From an uncultured archaeon (lineage in GTDB: Archaea; Asgardarchaeota; Lokiarchaeia; Sigyniarchaeales; SOKP01): a DNA stretch of 35,175 bases. Positions 7,714 to 22,165 of this stretch are shown one piece after another; the stretch's first letter is position 1; each line of letters opens with the position of its first letter. Both the position numbers and the translations under genes were made by a program. The notes beneath the pieces were generated by a model. The model ran no database searches. It was not told the DNA's origin and saw nothing but the letters and a program-made list of their open reading frames with translations. The stretch is from the NCBI GenBank assembly GCA_964632315.1, contig CAZWEM010000050.1:1-35175 (forward strand). Reading direction: 5' to 3'.

Positions 7714-9126
7714 TTAAAAATTTGGTTTTTTATCTTGCCATGGGGCAACTTCTTCGAATGCTTTAGAAACTTGTAGAACAGTTAATTCTTGGAACATTTT
7801 TCCAATAATTTGCATACCGATAGGTAATCCTTCTTTTGACCAACCACAGGGAATTGAAGCTGCAGGATGTCCTGTTAAGTTTATTGGAAACGTAAAAGCT
7901 TGCCAAGCAGTAGGTGAGACATTTTTTCCATTTATAGTCATTGGGAATGAGATACCTAAATCAAAAGCAGGTACGGCAGTGGTAGGTGTTATCAAAATAT
8001 CGTATTCTTTGAATATATTAAAAAAACTCTCAAATACCTTCTTTCTTGCATCCATTGCTCTGACAACCGATAGACCATCATATCCCAAAACGCCTTCAAC
8101 CATTTTCACTAAATCTGGATCCATTTTTTCCCGCCATTCCTTTAATTTAGGGTTTAAACTATATCCTACTTCTGAGATCCATATTGTATAGAAAGGTAGT
8201 TCAGGCTTCCTAAGTTTCATTTTGACTTTTTCTGGTTCCCAACCAAAAGAATTAAACTTTTCAATTGAATCAAGCACAGATTTCTCAACTTCAGAGTCCA
8301 CTATTTTCGCATACCCCATATCCATCGAATAAGCTATCTTCAATTTGGCTGGTTTCTCTTCAATTTTTTCATAATAACTAGTATCGTCCTTCGGGAGTGA
8401 ATGACGAAAACCTTCAAACGGACCTTTCATCACATCTAACATTAAAGCAGCATCCTTCACATGACGCGTAATTGGACCAGCGACCGATAAAGTATGAGCA
8501 AAAATATATTCTTTAGGATAATTTGGAACCCTACCAAAAGTTGGTTTTATACCATACACACCATTCAAACAAGCAGGAATTCTAATTGATCCTCCTCCAT
8601 CAGAACCTTGGGCTAATGGGCTGATTCCTGAAGCTACAGCAGCTCCAGCGCCTCCACTCGATCCTCCACAAGTTTTATTCAAGTTCCATGGATTTTTGGT
8701 TGTACCGAAAATAAGATTATCAGTCGCTCCTTTAAACCCAAACTCGGGAGTATTAGTTTTTCCTAATATAACAATACCCGCATCTTTTAACCTAGTCACG
8801 TAAACAGCATCTTCATTTGGAATGAAGTTTTCATAAATTTTTGAACCAAATGTAGTTCTTATACCCTTAGTCAGTGAAAGATCTTTAATCGAAGTTGGTA
8901 TACCATTTAGAAGACCTCCATCTCCCTTTTTAGCAAGTTCGTCAGCTTTTTTAGCCATATCTCGAGCAATATCAAAGGTAGGAGTGCAATAAGCATTTAT
9001 AATTGGATTTATCTTGTTTATCCTTTCAATAAGAGCCTCTGTAATTTCTAAAGAAGTTAATTCTTGGGTTGATATTTTCTCTCGCATATCACAAGCAGAA
9101 AGAAAACAAATTTCTTCTTTATTCAT
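7714..9126 (-). CDS. Amidase-signature family amidase (copy 1)
   Basis: IKD, GKTNTPEF, GGSSGG and GSDGGGSIRIPA. Start set at ATG 9126 (MNKEEICFLSA) by alignment to the neighbouring paralog (MKKEDICFLSA). Confidence 0.92.
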   Translation of the reverse strand: MNKEEICFLSACDMREKISTQELTSLEITEALIERINKINPIINAYCTPTFDIARDMAKKADELAKKGDGGLLNGIPTSIKDLSLTKGIRTTFGSKIYENFIPNEDAVYVTRLKDAGIVILGKTNTPEFGFKGATDNLIFGTTKNPWNLNKTCGGSSGGAGAAVASGISPLAQGSDGGGSIRIPACLNGVYGIKPTFGRVPNYPKEYIFAHTLSVAGPITRHVKDAALMLDVMKGPFEGFRHSLPKDDTSYYEKIEEKPAKLKIAYSMDMGYAKIVDSEVEKSVLDSIEKFNSFGWEPEKVKMKLRKPELPFYTIWISEVGYSLNPKLKEWREKMDPDLVKMVEGVLGYDGLSVVRAMDARKKVFESFFNIFKEYDILITPTTAVPAFDLGISFPMTINGKNVSPTAWQAFTFPINLTGHPAASIPCGWSKEGLPIGMQIIGKMFQELTVLQVSKAFEEVAPWQDKKPNF

Positions 9127-9169
9127 CCTCATCACATATTTATTAATAGGTTAAGATAAAATGCGGGAC

Positions 9170-9190
9170 GATTGAATTTAAATATTTTTT
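9170..9190 (-). promoter_or_regulatory. Putative BRE/TATA promoter of amidase copy 1
   Basis: + strand GATTGAATTTAAATATTTTTT, 44 nt from the ATG; a near-identical element sits at the same distance before amidase copy 2. Confidence 0.6.
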
Positions 9191-9231
9191 TTATTCCAGG
9201 TGAATTGGTTGGGATTTTGTAGAATATGGCT

Positions 9232-10677
9232 TTAATTGAAATCTGGCTTCTTTCCCCGCCATGGGTTAATATCTTCAAATATTTTTGAAACTTGAAGAAC
9301 TGTTAGCTCATCAAATCTATTTCCTACTATTTGCATTCCAACTGGGAGTCCTTTGCTAGTCCAACCACACGGGATTGAAGCGGCTGGATGCCCACTTGCA
9401 TTAAAGGGGTAGGTGAAAGGTAACCACCCTTCAGAGCTCACGGGTTTACCATTTATTATGACTCCGGTTTTTCCGGTTCCTTTTTCAACTTTTGATTTTC
9501 CGAGTTCAAAAGCTGGACACGCTAGTGTGGGTGTGATTAAAACATCGAATTTTTTGAAAGCTCTACAAATCTCTTGATATATGATTTCCCTCTGGATTTC
9601 AGCAATTTTAATCTCTTTTGTTGAAAATTTGTACCCTAGTTTAATCAAATCTACAAGCCCAGGATCCATTTTCTCCTCCGCAGTTTCCATATATGGTCCA
9701 AGACTATACGCAAATCCAGTACTCCATATTATGGAAAATGTAGATTCAGGATCCCTCAATTTAATTTTACTTTTTTCTATGGACCAACCGAAATCTTCAA
9801 ATTTTTGGATAGCATTAAATACTGATTTTTCAACCTCAGGTTCAAGAGCTTGTGCAAATCCTAGATCAAATGAATATCCTATTTTTAAATTACGACGTTC
9901 ATTTTCTATCATTTTCACATAGCTGAAATTAGGTTTTGGAACAGAATATCGGTCAGAATCGTCTTGTCCAGCAATAATATCTAAGATTAATGCAGCATCC
10001 CTTACATTTCTTACAAGAGGACCTTTATGAACAAATGTCCCAAGATAACCCATTAAAGTCATTGTATTTTGTGGAACCCTTCCAAAGGTAGACTTCAAAC
10101 CATAAATCCCACAGAAACAGCTTGGAATTCTAATTGAACCCCCACCATCGGATCCTATGCCAATCGGTCCTAAACCTGAAGCTACTGCCGCCGCCGCTCC
10201 ACCACTAGAACCTCCAGGTGTTCTTTCTAGATTCCAAGGATTTTTAGTTATTCCGAAGATTCTATTATCTGTTTCGCCTTTATATCCAAATGCAGGAGTA
10301 TTTGTTTTTCCTAAAATTACGCAGCCTGCTTCTCTTAGCCTTCTTACCACAGCTTCGTCTTCCCTAGGAATATTATTCTCAAATAGAAAACTCCCATATG
10401 TTGTTCTAATCGTTTTCGTCTCAGTTTCGTCTTTAATTGAAATAGGGATCCCCTGCAAAAGCCCCAACTTTTTCCCATTCTTAATAACCTCATCCGATTT
10501 TTTAGCCATTTCTCTGGCTAATTCAAAAGTGGGTGTACAGTAGGCATTAATTATTGGATTAACTTTTTCTATTCTCTCTATAATGATGTCTGTAATTTCT
10601 TGAGATGTAATTTCTTGAGTTCTTAATTTCTCTCTTATTTCATAAGCAGAAAGAAAGCAAATATCTTCTTTTTTCAT
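9232..10677 (-). CDS. Amidase-signature family amidase (copy 2)
   Basis: IKD, GKTNTPAF, GGSSGG and GSDGGGSIRIPS; colinear with copy 1. Confidence 0.92.
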   Translation of the reverse strand: MKKEDICFLSAYEIREKLRTQEITSQEITDIIIERIEKVNPIINAYCTPTFELAREMAKKSDEVIKNGKKLGLLQGIPISIKDETETKTIRTTYGSFLFENNIPREDEAVVRRLREAGCVILGKTNTPAFGYKGETDNRIFGITKNPWNLERTPGGSSGGAAAAVASGLGPIGIGSDGGGSIRIPSCFCGIYGLKSTFGRVPQNTMTLMGYLGTFVHKGPLVRNVRDAALILDIIAGQDDSDRYSVPKPNFSYVKMIENERRNLKIGYSFDLGFAQALEPEVEKSVFNAIQKFEDFGWSIEKSKIKLRDPESTFSIIWSTGFAYSLGPYMETAEEKMDPGLVDLIKLGYKFSTKEIKIAEIQREIIYQEICRAFKKFDVLITPTLACPAFELGKSKVEKGTGKTGVIINGKPVSSEGWLPFTYPFNASGHPAASIPCGWTSKGLPVGMQIVGNRFDELTVLQVSKIFEDINPWRGKKPDFN

Positions 10678-10719: not shown

Positions 10720-10740
10720 GATTGAATTTAATATTTTTTA
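10720..10740 (-). promoter_or_regulatory. Putative BRE/TATA promoter of amidase copy 2
   Basis: + strand GATTGAATTTAATATTTTTT, 43 nt from the ATG; overlaps the fucI stop codon. Confidence 0.6.
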
Positions 10741-12534
10741 TCCATAAAGTGGACCAAAATTTTTACAAGCCTGAAAGTCAGCATTTTCTAAATTTTCAGT
10801 ACCAAAAGCATTCCACGCGCTTGGTCGAAAAATTAAATCCTCAGAAACATTATGCATATTTACTGGTATTCTCAACATTGAGGCAAGTGTGATGAGATCT
10901 GCCCCAATATGTCCGAAACACAAAGCTCCATGGTTTGCTCCCCAATTATTCATGACATCATAAACCGATTTAAATGCTCCTTTACCAGTTAAACGAGGTA
11001 CAAACCAAGTTGTAGGCCAAGTGTTGTTCGTTCGATCATCCAAAACTTTATGAATTTTTTTTGGAATTTCAATAGCCCAACCTTCTGCTAATTGTAATAC
11101 TAGTCCAAGTCCTTTAACGATATTAACACGTGAAAGTGTCATTGGCATATCTCCTCTCGTTAAGAAGTTAGAAGAGAATCCTCCTCCACGAAAATATTCA
11201 AAAATTACGGGATCCCATTTTGTTGCGCTTAAACACTTTTTAACTTCGTCTTTGTTAATTTCCCAATATGGTTTCATTATTGGTTTACCATCTTTTTCCT
11301 GTTGGCCTGTACCGTCTAAAGAGGCAGATCCAGAATTGATTAAGTGGATCATTCCATCCTTGGCTTTTCCTATTAATTCTATTCCAGTAGTCCTTTTAAC
11401 TGCTTCTGGGCTCCAGTATGTCCTGATATCTGCAAAAATCTGAGCCGTATAGGTTAATACATGACCAAAAAGCATGACTATCCCATTCAAAGCATCATTT
11501 TCAGTTGCCATTAAAAAAGGCTGACGGATTCCGTTCCAATCAAATGAAGAGTTTAAAATTGATTCCATGAAATCCCCATTAGGCATGTGGTCAGTCCAAT
11601 GCCTTTGTCCTTGAAATCCAGCTACAATCGAATTATGCCCCAAAGATTCTTCTCCAAAACCAAGTTCTTTAAGTTTCTTATTTCCTATCATGAGATCTCG
11701 GCAAATCATCGACATCTTTACCATTGTTTCCCACTCATTATCTTTCTGTTCTCGTGTTTTTTGCAGATTTGGTGGATTCGTATCCTTTCCCTCTTTACAC
11801 ATATCTTTGACCCAAATCATCGCTTTTTTAAATTCTTCTTCATCATATATTTTTTCATTAATTCTACGAGTAATTTCAGACATGTCAACGTATTCATTTC
11901 TCATTCCCAGATATTCCTGAAAATAATTCTCATTAATTATTGATCCAGCAATACCCATTGATACGTTTCCAATGGATAAATAAGATTTTCCTCTCATCCA
12001 AGCTACCGCCAAGCCTGCTTTTGCAAATCGTAATAACTTTTCTTTAACATCTTCGGGTATAGTCTGATCATCTGCATCTTGTACGTTATGACTATAGATG
12101 CCAAATGCAGGTAAACCCTTCTGCGAATGAGCTGCGAGAACTGCTGCTAAATAAACTGCCCCTGGACGTTCAGTTCCATTAAATCCCCAAATAGCCTTTG
12201 GAATGAGTGGATCCATGTCCATTGTCTCTGAACCATAGCACCAACAAGGTGTTACAGTGATGGATAGACCCACATTTTCCCTTCTGAACTTATCAGCACA
12301 TTCTCTGGCTTGTGTTACATTACCAATGGTGGTTTCAGCTATGACACACTTTACACCCATTCCATTAGGAAATCGTAAATTCGATTCTAATAAATCAGCA
12401 ACAGTGGATGCTAACTGCATTGTCTGGTCTTCAAGGGATTCTCGAACTCCTTTTTCTCTTCCATCGATGGTTGGTCGAATCCCAATTTGTGGGAGTGTCG
12501 ATCTTAAACGTTTTACTCCTAAATGTAAGCTCAT
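10738..12534 (-). CDS. fucI: L-fucose isomerase
   Basis: [47 protein letters not shown] and WGANHG; 598 aa; SD AAGGAG. Confidence 0.96.
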
Positions 12535-12599
12535 AATTACTCCTTAAGTTTATTTCTTAAATTTTGAAAAAAAAATATGTGTTCTTTGATATTAAAAAA

Positions 12600-13211
12600 C
12601 TACCAAATAGAAAAGTCCTTCTCTTTTGAAAAATCTCTTTTTAATGGTTTTCCCGTCATTAATGTAAGATATCTAATCTTAGCCGATTGTTCAGCACCCG
12701 TGACGTATTGAAGTGCATCTTCTAAAGTCATGCCTTTAGCAAAGATCCCATGTCCTCTTACTATGACAAATGGATAGTTCTTTAGAACTTTTGGTACCTC
12801 TATTGAGGTATAATATGCTCCTGCTGGAATTTCTACATCAATAATCGGAATTTTCTTATATAATGCAAATCCTTCAGCGTCGATGCATGTTATTTCATCC
12901 TCAACTAAGGATAAAGCAACACAATACGGATTATGAGCGTGTATAACAGCCATCGCATCAGTTTCCAGATAAATTGCTCGGTGAACTCCAAGCTCGGTAC
13001 TTGCAATAAGTGAACTGGAATCCTCTTCTTTTAAATCTGTTTCTACTAGGTCTTCTGGTTCTAAATCTCCTAACATTCCCGCTCTACGTTTAATAATTAT
13101 CTTGCCACCATTTTTTATAGAAATATTTCCCGAATGGCTTGTATTATAACCATGTCGAACCAAATGCTTTCCTATCTTTCTAAACGTATGATATATAGAT
13201 TCATCTATCAT
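12600..13211 (-). CDS. fucA: Class II aldolase/adducin family, L-fuculose-1-phosphate aldolase-like
   Basis: SGNIS, ASTELGVH, IHAH and RGHG metal-binding motifs. ATG at 13211 follows GAGGA; the alternative TTG at 13223 overlaps the AOR stop. Adjacent to fucI. Confidence 0.78.
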   Translation of the reverse strand: MIDESIYHTFRKIGKHLVRHGYNTSHSGNISIKNGGKIIIKRRAGMLGDLEPEDLVETDLKEEDSSSLIASTELGVHRAIYLETDAMAVIHAHNPYCVALSLVEDEITCIDAEGFALYKKIPIIDVEIPAGAYYTSIEVPKVLKNYPFVIVRGHGIFAKGMTLEDALQYVTGAEQSAKIRYLTLMTGKPLKRDFSKEKDFSIW

Positions 13212-13219
13212 TTTTATCC

Positions 13220-15010
13220 TCAAATTGGTGATATATTCAGTTCTTTTAATTTTTCTTGCATAGGAATGCCATTTTCATCCCAACCTCGTACGTAATAGAA
13301 TTGCTTTAACATGCTTGATAGAGGAATGATACGATCTTTTGATGGCCCTTCCTTAAGAGGTTGATTCAAGAATCTAGATGGTAATGTGTCATCCTTACTC
13401 GATAATCCCTCTCTAAGATTAAATAATCTTTCTAAATTATAAATTCTCTCTCCTATCCTCGTTAGTTTTATTACATCATAGTCATTTCCCGTAATTGCTT
13501 TCATGAATCGAGCATAATAATCCAAGCCTAATGCCCAACCAGCAAATACACAAACAACTAGACTGTCCTCGGTTGCTTTTTGGTTTTGTTTAAGTGCTAA
13601 TAAATCTGGTTTTCCTCCCGTAGTAAACCTATCGATCTTTTTCGGAGCAGCAAAAATTTCCAATGCTGCTAAATAACCCGTGAGATGACAACCTCCCCTA
13701 TTTGAGGTTGCATAACCTAAAGCATGACCTATTGCTCCTCGAGGGTCGTAAGCAGGAAGCTCGAGATTTTTAACATGGATTGCACTATCTACTGAGTTAT
13801 ACCTTTTTGCTAATCTATAGGCACCTTCACTAATATCTGCACCAATTCCATGTTTATTAGCAATGTCATCGATCAATCCTTTCAAAATAGACTCATTACC
13901 AAATTTCAACATTTCATTTTGGATTATTCCTTTTTGCTGTAATTCCATGGCACAACTAATACTTACACCACAAGAGATTGTATCTAGCCCGAGAGAATTA
14001 CATAAATAATTAGCTTGTGCAACTAATTCCAAATCAAAAATTTCTAAATTTGGTCCCAAAGCCCATACAGATTCATATTCTGGACCCTTTCCTTGTTCTT
14101 TACCTGCTTTTGTCAGCCTTCCACATCGAATAGGACAAGCGTAACATCCTTCTGACTTTTGAAATAATTCTTTATTGATCGATTCTCCGCTAACTTGAAA
14201 TGCTCTTTCATCAAATCCATATTGAAAGTTTTTTATTGGGAACATTCCTAACGTATTTATTACATTAACCAATGCGGAAGTACCAAATTTTGGTAACGAG
14301 GATCGAGTGATTGGAACTACTTTTATTTTATCCTGAGCCACTTTTACATACTTTCTTAGCAACTCAAGATTTTTAATTTCTACTTTTTTTGTACCTCTCT
14401 GCACAACTATGGCTTTCAGCTTCTTTGAACCCATAACCGCACCCACACCACCTCGACCAAATGCTCGGGCAGCATCGTTCATTATTGAAGATATTAATAC
14501 CTCTTTTTCTCCTGCTGGCCCAATCATTAAAGAATTTATTCGTTCTCCTTCGAGTTTTTGCAATTCTTTTAAGCAATCTTCAGTCTTTAAACCCCATAAA
14601 GGGGAAGCATCTTGAATCGTCACTTCTCCTGATTCTGTGATCAGAAGATATCCTGGTGTTTTTAATGACCCTACTATAAAGATTCCATCATATCCACATT
14701 TTTTCATAAATACACCGAAGTTTCCTCCCGAATTTGAGTAGAATATTCCTCCTGTTAATGGAGATTTAGTGACTAAAGAGAACCTGCCATTAGTTGGTAC
14801 GATGGTAGCTCCAAATGGCCCTGTTGTAAAAATTAAGATGTTATTTGAACCCAATGGGTCGGTTTTGGGAGGAATATGATCAATCAATAATTTAACCCCT
14901 AAGCCCCGCCCACCGATGTAATTATCTAATAAATCTTCCGATAAATCTAAGGTTGTAAGTTGCTTTTTGCTAAGATTTACTTTTAATACCCTATTATTCA
15001 TTCCAATCAT
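13220..15010 (-). CDS. aor: Tungsten-type aldehyde:ferredoxin oxidoreductase family protein
   Basis: GGRGLG, KSPLTG, GRGGVGAVMGSKKLKA, CYACPIRCG (Fe-S), EYE, GLDTIS, YDPRG, RGGCHL and DSLVVC. Confidence 0.93.
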   Translation of the reverse strand: MIGMNNRVLKVNLSKKQLTTLDLSEDLLDNYIGGRGLGVKLLIDHIPPKTDPLGSNNILIFTTGPFGATIVPTNGRFSLVTKSPLTGGIFYSNSGGNFGVFMKKCGYDGIFIVGSLKTPGYLLITESGEVTIQDASPLWGLKTEDCLKELQKLEGERINSLMIGPAGEKEVLISSIMNDAARAFGRGGVGAVMGSKKLKAIVVQRGTKKVEIKNLELLRKYVKVAQDKIKVVPITRSSLPKFGTSALVNVINTLGMFPIKNFQYGFDERAFQVSGESINKELFQKSEGCYACPIRCGRLTKAGKEQGKGPEYESVWALGPNLEIFDLELVAQANYLCNSLGLDTISCGVSISCAMELQQKGIIQNEMLKFGNESILKGLIDDIANKHGIGADISEGAYRLAKRYNSVDSAIHVKNLELPAYDPRGAIGHALGYATSNRGGCHLTGYLAALEIFAAPKKIDRFTTGGKPDLLALKQNQKATEDSLVVCVFAGWALGLDYYARFMKAITGNDYDVIKLTRIGERIYNLERLFNLREGLSSKDDTLPSRFLNQPLKEGPSKDRIIPLSSMLKQFYYVRGWDENGIPMQEKLKELNISPI

Positions 15011-15162: not shown

Positions 15163-16479
15163 TTGGAAAAAAAAATTGTCCTAGTTGGTGCAGGCAGCAC
15201 CAGTTTCGGCCCATCTATGTTTACTGATATCTATCATAGTGATTTGCTCGATGGATCAACTATTGTCCTACAGGACACTAATCAAGGTAAACTTAAAATA
15301 ATTTTTGAGCTGTTAGAAGCTGAAAATGATTTAATTGGAAATAAATTTAATTTAGAATACACAATAGATAGAACCAAGGCATTTAAAAATGCTGATTTCA
15401 TAGTAAGTTCAATTGAAATCGGAGATAGGATGAAATTATGGAGAGATGACTATGAAACACCTCGTAAATATGGGTCAACTCAAGTATTAGGAGAATGCGG
15501 TGGGCCTGGTGGAAGCTTACATGCCTTTCGGATCATACCATCCATAATTGAAATTGTTAGAGATGCTGAAAAAATTTGTCCCAATGCCTTTTTCATTAAC
15601 TTTTCAAATCCAATGTCAAGAGTTTGTTTGGCCATAAAGAGAGCTACTAAAAATTTGAAATTCGCTGGTCTTTGTCACCAAATTGGAGCACTTTATCTTC
15701 GTCTGCCTCAAATGCTAGGAATAAAGCTTCCAGAGATAAAAATCAGGCCCTATGGTTTAAACCATTTTGGCTTTCTAATGGGGCTTGAGGAGATCGCAAC
15801 TGGAAGAAATTTGATGCCTGAATTTAATTCCAAAGCATTGGATTATTTTACTAAGTGGGAAGAGAGGTTTGAATTTTCAACATTAACTTTTGAAATCTAT
15901 AAACGATTTGGATGGTTCCCCTACGTTGGAGATAATCATCTTGCGGAATACCTTCAAATTGGAGAGGAATTTACAAAAACTCAAGACATGATAGATTGGA
16001 TCGATAGAACTGAAGATTATAATCAAGGAATCTATAAAAAATTGATGAGATATTATAACCGGTTGAAGAAAGGGAGGTATCCTAAAAGGGGAATGCTAAG
16101 AGGAATCTCTGGAGAAGATGCAATTCCAATAATCGAATCGATTATAAAGGACGATAATGCATATCATACTGCTGTTAATATCCCTAACGATGGAATAGTA
16201 GAAAACCTCCCTCAAGATCTTATCTTGGAATGTCCCGCAACAGGAGATAAAAATGGAGTTCATGGAATTAAATGGGGAAATTTACCAAAAAGTATTGCTG
16301 CATTGCTGCGTATAGAAGCAAGTGTACAAGATATTTGTATCGATGCTATACTAACTAAATCAAAAGAACAAGCCATCACAGCATTAGCAATTGATCCAAA
16401 TCTGGGAAGTTTTGAAAAAGCAGAAGAAATTTTTAAAGAAATGAAACAAAAGTATGATTATTATAATTACTTTAAGTAA
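15163..16479 (+). CDS. GH4 NAD+-dependent glycosidase (alpha-galactosidase/glucosidase-like), copy 1
   Basis: GAGS, GPGG, NFSNP, GLCH and GLNH; TTG start 7 nt after GGTGA. Confidence 0.92.
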   Translation: MEKKIVLVGAGSTSFGPSMFTDIYHSDLLDGSTIVLQDTNQGKLKIIFELLEAENDLIGNKFNLEYTIDRTKAFKNADFIVSSIEIGDRMKLWRDDYETPRKYGSTQVLGECGGPGGSLHAFRIIPSIIEIVRDAEKICPNAFFINFSNPMSRVCLAIKRATKNLKFAGLCHQIGALYLRLPQMLGIKLPEIKIRPYGLNHFGFLMGLEEIATGRNLMPEFNSKALDYFTKWEERFEFSTLTFEIYKRFGWFPYVGDNHLAEYLQIGEEFTKTQDMIDWIDRTEDYNQGIYKKLMRYYNRLKKGRYPKRGMLRGISGEDAIPIIESIIKDDNAYHTAVNIPNDGIVENLPQDLILECPATGDKNGVHGIKWGNLPKSIAALLRIEASVQDICIDAILTKSKEQAITALAIDPNLGSFEKAEEIFKEMKQKYDYYNYFK

Positions 16480-20803: not shown

Positions 20804-22165
20804 TTGGAAAATCAAGATAAGAAACAATTAACCTCGCGGAATTTATGGGGTTATGCTATAGGTGCCATACCAAATGGATTATTGGTATTTATATTCCTTT
20901 TAAAGTATATACAGTTATTTTATGACAAATTACAATTAGCCCCAACTTTATTCGTAATTGGTCAAGTGATATACATGATAGTCAACGCGTTGAACGATCC
21001 GTTATTGGGACAGATGTCTGATCGAACCAATTCACAAAAATGGGGAAGTAGACGAACCATTTATATTCGATACGGAGCTCCAATTTGGGGTTTTACATTC
21101 ATGTTAGTATGGATTCCTTGGAGTTTTACTAATCAAATCGTCATCTTTCTTCATTTTGTCGTCAGTATTTGTCTGTTTGATACATTTTTTACTTTAGTTG
21201 TTCTTGTATGGATGGCTTTATTACCAGAAATGACTTCAGATCTGGACGAAAGGAATAAGGCAAACTTTTTAGCAACTATCATAGCTGCCGTATTCGTTCT
21301 TCCAATGTTTATCATCATAGGATCAATGGATCCAACATCGGAACAATTTGTTTTACTAATGCTTTTTATCGCAATTTTCTCGACGATTCTATTAATTTTT
21401 ACCTCGTTCATGTGTAAGGAAAGACCTGAATTTCAAAAGGACGAGGGACTTCCCTTGATAAAAGCAGTAAAGGAGACCTTGAGAATGAAATCCTTTCTGC
21501 TATTCATAGCATATAGTTTCTGTGATGCTTTTATTGGTTCAATAGGGTTGAGTTATTTATTTGTCTACTTGTTGATTCTTGGAGAAGGTGGGCTACTTTA
21601 CTATTTTGCAATTTTCTTCTTTATTGGCTATGGAGCAAACTACTTTTATATAAAAATGAGACCAAAATGGGGCATGCGGAAAATTTTACTAAGATCTGGC
21701 TTCGCAAATGTCATAATAACGCTCGGATTATTTCCTTTCATCCTTTTAATTGATGCTCCTTTACTAGTGGTTATAACTTTAGCTATAAGGACCTTTTTAG
21801 GAGGGTATACGGTGTTTAATACTCCTTTCTTGTACCTTTCTATTGATGAGGACGAATTAAAAACTGGTTCCAGAAGAGAAGGAATGTTTTTAGGCATAAA
21901 TGCGTTAGTCAACAAACCAGCTCAAAGTATTGGGCCAATTATAGCAACTTTAGTCCTTGGAATCTTTGGTTACGTACAAAATTCAGCTATTCAACCCGAT
22001 TCTGCGTTTATTGGAATAAAGTTACTAATGTTTATAGTTCCAGCAATGGTAAACGCTATTGGCCTGATATTCATGTACTTCTACCCACTTTATGGAGATA
22101 GTCTGAACGAACTCCAAGAAAAACTTCGCAAACTTCACGCAGAAAAAAGAGAACGGATTGAATAA
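20804..22165 (+). CDS. MFS glycoside-pentoside-hexuronide (MelB-like) transporter
   Basis: NALNDPLLGQMSDRT, DEDELKTGSRREG and ~12 TM segments; TTG start after GGAGA. Confidence 0.9.
   Translation: MENQDKKQLTSRNLWGYAIGAIPNGLLVFIFLLKYIQLFYDKLQLAPTLFVIGQVIYMIVNALNDPLLGQMSDRTNSQKWGSRRTIYIRYGAPIWGFTFMLVWIPWSFTNQIVIFLHFVVSICLFDTFFTLVVLVWMALLPEMTSDLDERNKANFLATIIAAVFVLPMFIIIGSMDPTSEQFVLLMLFIAIFSTILLIFTSFMCKERPEFQKDEGLPLIKAVKETLRMKSFLLFIAYSFCDAFIGSIGLSYLFVYLLILGEGGLLYYFAIFFFIGYGANYFYIKMRPKWGMRKILLRSGFANVIITLGLFPFILLIDAPLLVVITLAIRTFLGGYTVFNTPFLYLSIDEDELKTGSRREGMFLGINALVNKPAQSIGPIIATLVLGIFGYVQNSAIQPDSAFIGIKLLMFIVPAMVNAIGLIFMYFYPLYGDSLNELQEKLRKLHAEKRERIE

Follow-up and report, generated by a model that had tools for sequence, protein, structure and literature searches.

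The window analyzed here is the whole of contig C50 (35,175 nucleotides), from the metagenome-assembled genome (MAG) of an Asgard archaeon, and it carries, one after the other, genes for an aldehyde ferredoxin oxidoreductase (AOR; gene aor), a FucA-like class II aldolase and the L-fucose isomerase FucI (gene fucI). Judging from the genes and their surroundings, the cluster probably belongs to a phosphorylative 6-deoxyhexose route of the bacterial type, in which the aldolase would split the sugar phosphate and the AOR would oxidize the lactaldehyde, a toxic by-product, to lactate. This is the interpretation that an earlier note on the same DNA had offered, and the gene context supports it.

The pair formed by the AOR and the aldolase is conserved. 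Orthologs of the aldolase were searched for in 301 Asgard genomes and those of the AOR in the species-representative genomes. The aldolase was present in 23 of the 301, among them 11 of the 27 genomes of the window's own genus, and wherever the DNA before it was readable (21 loci, from several families), an AOR ortholog stands directly upstream. Identity to the window pair ranges from 53 to 76% for the AOR and from 57 to 92% for the aldolase, i.e., the adjacency is kept down to 53 and 57%, respectively. The scan with the AOR gave nine Asgard loci (70 to 76% identity), with the aldolase (87 to 91% identical) immediately after it wherever downstream DNA exists. Two genomes of a sister genus have an open reading frame of 305 amino acids, without any Pfam match, between AOR and aldolase (L057:10659-11576 and the equivalent position in L058). 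The earlier note had asked for conserved synteny of the three genes, and this holds for aor and the aldolase across Asgard families but not for fucI, which is not part of the conserved unit. The gene after the aldolase differs among loci (fucI, GH29, carboxylesterase, YdjC, permease or nothing), and the order aor-aldolase-fucI was found in the window, L025 and L042. Two irregular cases were noticed as well. In G155, the aldolase ortholog appears as two overlapping out-of-frame pieces (L062:9942-10548, query residues 2-149 and 138-203), owing to a frameshift or to an error of assembly. In a single MAG (L023:5980-8264), the AOR ortholog ends early (549 amino acids) and what follows is not the aldolase, which is missing, but a DctM-family fragment, an arrangement that may be an assembly chimera or a rearrangement.

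In many loci, the pair is accompanied by genes of deoxyhexose use. The commonest layout is rhaA-aor-aldolase, with the end of rhaA (L-rhamnose isomerase) 2 to 12 nt before aor and gaps of 2 to 12 nt, and, depending on the locus, the pair is joined by rhaA, by fucI or by both. RhaA, RhaB, aor-aldolase and FucI all lie in some 10 kb of a locus from another genus (L059). In two loci of the window's genus (L063 and L065), rhaA-aor-aldolase shares a stretch of 10 kb with genes for a GPH permease and a RhaB-type kinase, in L065 with a glycoside hydrolase of family 78 (GH78) in addition, and L020 reads RhaB-GH78-rhaA-aor-aldolase. GH78 neighbors the pair in L017, L020, L021, L022, L043, L057, L058 and L064-L066; a GH29 gene directly follows the aldolase in L021, L022, L040, L041 and L066; and the GPH permease is conserved nearby in L021, L022 and L063-L066. 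A carboxylesterase is another recurrent neighbor, directly downstream of the aldolase in L019, L033, L039, L054 and L063. Seen against these loci, the window looks like a rearranged version of its relatives' layout, with rhaA 7 kb away and fucI downstream.

The distribution of the isomerases follows that of the pair. Of the 301 Asgard genomes, 17 have RhaA, 8 have FucI and 19 have at least one of the two; 17 of these 19 carry the pair, and isomerases occur in 2 of the 278 genomes that do not have it. Within the window's genus, where RhaA is present in 10 of 27 genomes, it accompanies the pair in 10 of 11 cases and is found in none of the 16 genomes without it; these figures are to be read as plain counts, related genomes not being independent samples. 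The adjacency in 21 of 21 loci, together with the co-occurrence of pair and isomerases across the 301 genomes, makes the AOR-aldolase arrangement more than chance. A candidate for the kinase expected in such a pathway is encoded on another contig of the genome (C5), among unrelated genes. It is of the RhaB type (TIGR02627, 519 bits, cut-off 528) and 54 to 60% identical to the orthologs that cluster with the pair in L020, L059, L063 and L065.

The pairing turns up in independent lineages as well. Distant homologs of the aldolase (40 to 46% identity) were collected from a library of 1.8 billion proteins, and one contig from a public sequencing run (L075:986-10228, 57% GC) contains genes for a DeoR regulator, an FAD-oxidase of the D-lactate dehydrogenase type, AOR, aldolase, a RhaB-like kinase, FucI and RhaA, which share one orientation and follow each other closely. 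Identity to the window or Asgard proteins is 46% for the AOR, 41 to 42% for the aldolase and 42% for the kinase. This is the most complete version of the proposed pathway in a single locus, and in it two isomerases would share one kinase, one aldolase and one AOR. The suggestion of the earlier note that one aldolase/AOR pair may serve both sugars fits this shared set, as it fits the Asgard loci in which the pair is joined to rhaA, to fucI or to both. AOR and aldolase are also adjacent in a bacterial contig (L070). In L074:3544-5576, the place directly upstream of an aldolase homolog (43% identity) is taken by a NAD-type aldehyde dehydrogenase (ALDH; PF00171), whose gene stops 12 nt short of it; the ALDH seems to have replaced the AOR without being its ortholog. 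The aldolase homolog of L076 is followed by a Zn alcohol dehydrogenase. In these four contexts, the aldolase subfamily is repeatedly coupled to an enzyme acting on aldehydes.

The aldolase is not assigned by any curated family model. Its best NCBIfam match is PRK08660, "aldolase" (193.7 bits, cut-off 203); it scores far lower with TIGR01086 fucA (39 bits, cut-off 400) and the RhaD models (21 to 27 bits; TIGR02624 21 bits, cut-off 401). MtnB, which the earlier note had named among the assignments that would speak against it, can be discarded (TIGR03328, 54.8 bits, cut-off 137). The nearest solved structure is the fuculose-1-phosphate aldolase of Thermus thermophilus (2fk5, E 5e-21). The Zn ligands H91, H93 and H154 and the catalytic E73 align with H92, H94, H155 and E73 of Escherichia coli FucA, and N29, S71, E73, H91, H93 and H154 are invariant in 23 aldolase orthologs. 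Compared with the phosphate site of FucA (N29, T43/G44, S71, S72), N29 and S71 are invariant, T72 is nearly so and T43-G44 is replaced by A-G or A-A. Since its scores lie below the curated FucA and RhaD cut-offs, the protein represents a distinct subfamily and cannot be counted as an ortholog of either E. coli enzyme. All 23 Asgard orthologs end in a C-terminal tail (residues 188-203) with the invariant pattern K..L.RD......F..W, in which W is the last residue. E. coli FucA closes its active site with the C-terminal tail; by analogy, that of the Asgard aldolase may shape aldehyde specificity or contact a partner. We also asked whether the real RhaD could be one of the genome's two further class II aldolases, which their unrelated contexts ruled out. 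The first, a generic protein that stands alone, has DNA polymerase IV and a nucleotidase as neighbors. The second is a 576-amino-acid fusion of D-2-hydroxyacid dehydrogenase and class II aldolase-family domains (C10:56324-58054; L067:12325-14055), adjoining an FGGY kinase and a protein of 253 amino acids without NCBIfam match, a locus that may be a tetronate or acid-sugar module. Given these contexts and its own, the aldolase of the window is the sole candidate for the cleavage step.

The AOR has the full-length architecture of the family, with AFOR_N (PF02730, residues 7-204, E 4e-71) followed by AFOR_C (PF01314, residues 221-593, E 5e-131). It scores 538 bits against the AOR of Pyrococcus furiosus (1aor), 318 against formaldehyde ferredoxin oxidoreductase (1b25), 223 against WOR5, 142 against BamB and 48 with the model of glyceraldehyde-3-phosphate ferredoxin oxidoreductase. 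In the alignment with 1aor, the motifs CYACPIRCGR, GPEYES and GGCH and the distal Cys are present, so that the 4Fe-4S cysteines (CxxCxxxC plus the distal one) and the catalytic Glu and His are kept (C288, C291, C295, C494, E313 and H448 in P. furiosus). The corresponding C289, C292, C296, C487, E313 and H442 are invariant in 17 orthologs. The protein is thus a canonical AOR sensu stricto. Phylogeny, which the earlier note had proposed as a check, places 19 aldolase-linked Asgard AORs, including that of the window, in one clade of the AOR sensu stricto group (Shimodaira-Hasegawa-like approximate likelihood ratio support 99), and the closest outside sequence in the tree is an AOR from Cloacimonadota. 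In total, 16 proteins of the genome match the AOR family, and all but one of these are full-length or close to it (15). The 13 other full-length paralogs compared are at most 36% identical to the AOR of the window and fall outside the linked clade. Several of the paralogs are near genes for iron-containing alcohol dehydrogenases (Fe-ADH; contigs C9 and C27), and one on C27 lies beside a histidine-utilization block (urocanase, HAL, FTCD) and a leucine-rich-repeat protein. Prediction of a complex between AOR and aldolase gave scores of 0.24 and 0.02, against a mark of 0.32.

The layout of the locus in the window is as the earlier note described it. The genes aor, aldolase and fucI are co-oriented, the ATG of the aldolase (13211) is found 8 nt past the aor TGA (13222-13220; spacer GGATAAAA), its probable Shine-Dalgarno sequence (SD; GAGG) overlaps that stop codon, and fucI begins after a spacer of 65 nt downstream of the aldolase. 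The aor and aldolase genes are almost certainly bicistronic. A TATATT centered ca. 26 nt before the aor ATG, with no SD upstream of aor, hints at a leaderless aor-aldolase mRNA. In the spacer before fucI (12535-12599), runs of T6 and T9 are followed by a TATA-like box rich in A/T and by an AGGAG that precedes the fucI ATG by 6 nt; together they could be a terminator and an internal promoter. Oligo-T runs can stop archaeal transcription, and, because of those in the 65-nt spacer, fucI may have its own promoter or be a separate transcription unit. A scan with a sigma-70 promoter/terminator model, which does not apply to archaea, found sites no more numerous than in shuffled sequence. Among the sequencing runs listed for the window there was no RNA data set; one run of unspecified type contains 47% of the sampled words. 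As the note had also stated, rhaA and GH78 are nearby. The GH29 fucosidase that it placed downstream of fucI is there, but two amidase-signature genes that it did not mention stand in between. These two tandem genes (7714-10677, minus strand) are not at the equivalent place in Hodarchaeum mangrovi (L025), in which GH29 directly follows fucI, and they look like an insertion.

In the pathway that we propose, GH78 and GH29 enzymes would free L-rhamnose and L-fucose, and the GPH permease may import both. RhaA and FucI would isomerize them to L-rhamnulose and L-fuculose, and the single RhaB-type FGGY kinase of contig C5 would form both ketose-1-phosphates. The FucA-like class II aldolase, in place of RhaD and FucA, would cleave these to dihydroxyacetone phosphate (DHAP) and L-lactaldehyde. 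The co-translated AOR, whose metal would be W or Mo, would then oxidize L-lactaldehyde to L-lactate with reduction of ferredoxin, replacing the NAD-dependent AldA or RhaW, or the reductase FucO. For the lactate, conversion to D-lactate and pyruvate seems possible, because one of the two LarA lactate racemase homologs of the genome overlaps by 32 nt a D-lactate-dehydrogenase-like FAD/FeS oxidase, a protein of 584 amino acids with FAD_binding_4, FAD-oxidase_C and Fer4 domains (C3:124785-127803; L069:5786-8804).

Several observations weigh against this pathway. The aldolase remains below every curated NCBIfam cut-off, FucA and RhaD included, and AORs are broad-range aldehyde oxidizers. The seven full-length FGGY kinases of the genome include no recognizable FucK ortholog, and a mutarotase (RhaM or FucU) was not found in the genome either. 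The T6 and T9 runs may end transcription, so that fucI need not be co-transcribed with the pair. Outside the Asgard archaea, the aldolase homologs of 40 to 46% identity adjoin an AOR only sometimes, and some have no aldehyde-enzyme neighbor. Finally, six genomes with the pair (G124, G155, G158, G240, G258 and G294) show neither RhaA nor FucI, and the module is thus not strictly a deoxyhexose device. G124, G155 and G158, of one distant genus, are 83 to 88% complete and G240 is 93% complete. In these four, whose surroundings were read, the pair is kept amid genes that are not related to sugars, such as PadR, radical SAM, Fe-S proteins (Fer4_16), a small GTPase and ion transporters (Na+/H+ exchanger, H+-PPase). 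G240 has a solitary RhaB-like kinase, and an alternative isomerase looked for beside it was not found. Where the isomerases are lacking, ribulose-1-phosphate, intermediates of the DHAP shunt or further ketose-1-phosphates may be the substrates of the module, unless the isomerases have been missed. These genomes also speak for an alternative that we consider unlikely, namely, that the pair is a generic module turning ketose-1-phosphates into DHAP and an aldehyde, and the aldehyde into an acid, with a main substrate other than a deoxyhexose and a secondary position in rhamnose and fucose use. Candidate substrates would be 5-deoxyribulose-1-phosphate or methylthioribulose-1-phosphate (formed from by-products of S-adenosylmethionine and converted by the DHAP shunt to acetaldehyde or methylthioacetaldehyde) or ribulose-1-phosphate (giving glycolaldehyde). 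That class II aldolases of the FucA type yield DHAP and various aldehydes is established, as in the DHAP shunt or in the action of FucA on D-ribulose-1-phosphate, and the aldolase of the window also scores weakly with the MtnB, ribulose-1-phosphate aldolase and methanogen FucA models. However, RhaA goes with the pair in the window's genus (10 of 11 genomes with the pair have it, versus 0 of 16 without), the gap between rhaA and aor in relatives is as small as 2 to 12 nt, and L075 unites both isomerases, kinase, aldolase and AOR in one co-oriented row. Both readings can hold at once, with a general module being used for deoxyhexoses in this genome.

The fate of the lactaldehyde could also be different. 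It is common for anaerobic bacteria to release 1,2-propanediol as a product of rhamnose and fucose, and elsewhere in the genome there are four Fe-ADH genes, two of them near other AOR paralogs, and one ALDH gene whose products could take the lactaldehyde. If a FucO-like Fe-ADH not linked to the pair reduced most of it to 1,2-propanediol, the AOR would have another purpose, for instance general aldehyde detoxification or acid reduction. We regard this as quite improbable, given that no Fe-ADH was seen in the annotated rhamnose and fucose loci, where the AOR is always present, and that the linked AOR forms a dedicated clade. Besides, its position is taken by an oxidizing ALDH in L074, and a lactate-dehydrogenase-like flavoprotein precedes it in L075. 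An adjacency devoid of functional meaning, with an AOR paralog having landed by chance in a glycoside hydrolase island, is conceivable in a genome with so many AOR-family matches, some of which are to be expected near sugar genes by chance. Yet such an accident is extremely hard to reconcile with a linkage that persists in every readable locus and down to the lowest AOR identity, with tight spacing and monophyletic linked AORs, and that recurs in unrelated lineages. The phosphorylative deoxyhexose route with an oxidizing AOR thus remains our preferred reading. More tentatively, with arguments that we find about evenly balanced, the linked AOR clade would be a dedicated L-lactaldehyde:ferredoxin oxidoreductase. 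Together with the aldolase, it would form a portable two-gene module of Asgard archaea and some bacteria that completes the phosphorylative rhamnose/fucose pathway, for the first time in Archaea, delivers electrons to ferredoxin and potentially to H2, and uses other ketose-1-phosphates in the lineages without the isomerases.

In E. coli, rhamnose and fucose are degraded by RhaA-RhaB-RhaD and FucI-FucK-FucA, followed by AldA or FucO. The Asgard version has in common with these routes the isomerases RhaA (628 bits) and FucI (1048 bits, over the cut-off), the RhaB-type candidate kinase and a class II Zn aldolase that would yield DHAP and L-lactaldehyde. It differs in that no orthologs of RhaD, FucA or FucK were found, in that one small PRK08660-like aldolase and apparently one kinase would serve two isomerases, in the proposed ferredoxin-linked AOR instead of the NAD-linked AldA or FucO, and in its Asgard host. 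The AOR of P. furiosus is regarded as a broad-range enzyme for the aldehydes of amino acid fermentation. It matches the AOR of the window along the whole protein, 4Fe-4S cysteines and equivalents of Glu313 and His448 included, and in both the gene stands alone, without AorA/AorC-type partners beside it. In contrast, the surroundings of its genes connect the linked clade with a single aldolase and with deoxy-sugar genes. In bacteria, RhaEW (YuxG of Bacillus subtilis, and also in Chloroflexus aurantiacus) is a fused L-rhamnulose-1-phosphate aldolase/L-lactaldehyde dehydrogenase, and some RhaR regulons include lactate dehydrogenase genes (Rodionova et al. 2013, PMC3870299). Here, too, aldolase and lactaldehyde oxidizer are kept together, as a fusion in RhaEW and as a gene pair in the window, and L-lactate would be the product. 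However, RhaW is a NAD-dependent dehydrogenase domain of the short-chain type, whereas the AOR is a separate pterin/4Fe-4S enzyme predicted to reduce ferredoxin. The L-rhamnose route of Haloferax volcanii is presented in PMC10838023, citing Reinhardt et al. 2019, as an oxidative, non-phosphorylative diketo-hydrolase pathway; substrate and domain of life are the same, but the Asgard genes would provide isomerase, kinase and aldolase instead. The earlier note did not recognize the arrangement as described, and in full-text literature searches we also found no paper combining aldehyde ferredoxin oxidoreductase with lactaldehyde. No title or abstract retrieved by literature searches (tungsten and Asgard included among the terms) tied AOR to lactaldehyde or to rhamnose or fucose catabolism. 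A review of aldehyde dehydrogenases and the study of Rodionova et al. 2013 (PMC3870299) contain no AOR-lactaldehyde link, and the latter, the main comparative study of bacterial rhamnose pathways, mentions neither ferredoxin, tungsten nor archaea. What appears to be new is therefore the combination, in an archaeon, of a probable phosphorylative deoxyhexose pathway whose aldolase is non-orthologous with a putative ferredoxin-linked step of lactaldehyde oxidation.

The other genes of the region are listed in Table 1. The MAG to which C50 belongs has 4.45 Mb in 119 contigs (99.5% complete, 8.6% contamination), and the loci nearest to that of the window come from MAGs labelled Promethearchaeota, Hermodarchaeota or Hodarchaeota. 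An archaeal threonyl-tRNA synthetase editing domain and a proteasome subunit are also encoded in the window. Genomes of the same genus share the gene order of its left flank (EamA, a gene of unknown function, GGR and an FAD protein), and C50 is therefore not a contaminant.

Table 1. Genes of the aor-aldolase-fucI region, in positions of the window
Feature	Position	Strand	Family match
GH29 alpha-L-fucosidase, 459 aa	6289..7668	-	PF01120, E 7e-91, + Fucosidase_C
Amidase-signature enzyme 2, 473 aa	7714..9135	-	PF01425, E 3e-116
Amidase-signature enzyme 1, 481 aa	9232..10677	-	PF01425, E 5e-113
L-fucose isomerase FucI, 598 aa	10738..12534	-	TIGR01089, 1047.7 bits (cut-off 850); three FucI Pfam domains
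Class II (Zn) DHAP-type aldolase, FucA-like, 203 aa; proposed L-rhamnulose-1-P/L-fuculose-1-P aldolase	12600..13211	-	PF00596, E 2e-31
AOR, 596 aa; proposed L-lactaldehyde:ferredoxin oxidoreductase	13220..15010	-	PF02730 (AFOR_N) + PF01314 (AFOR_C)
GH4 glycosidase, divergent from aor	15163..16479	+	PF02056 + PF11975
GH78 alpha-L-rhamnosidase, 895 aa	16497..19184	+	Five rhamnosidase Pfam domains
Carboxylesterase, 495 aa	19196..20683	-	PF00135, E 5e-128
GPH/MFS_2 sugar:cation symporter, 453 aa; candidate deoxyhexose/oligosaccharide permease	20804..22165	+	PF13347 + TIGR00792
L-rhamnose isomerase RhaA, 420 aa	22176..23438	-	PF06134, 628 bits

AOR enzymes are abundant in anaerobes, and few of them have an assigned role. 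If the proposed pathway is true, one AOR clade would gain a defined physiological substrate and a pathway, and a phosphorylative 6-deoxyhexose route would exist in Archaea, whose characterized routes are oxidative. The diet of these Asgard archaea would then include algal, plant and bacterial glycans rich in rhamnose or fucose, converted to DHAP, lactate and reduced ferredoxin, a yield that fits a syntrophic lifestyle with release of H2.

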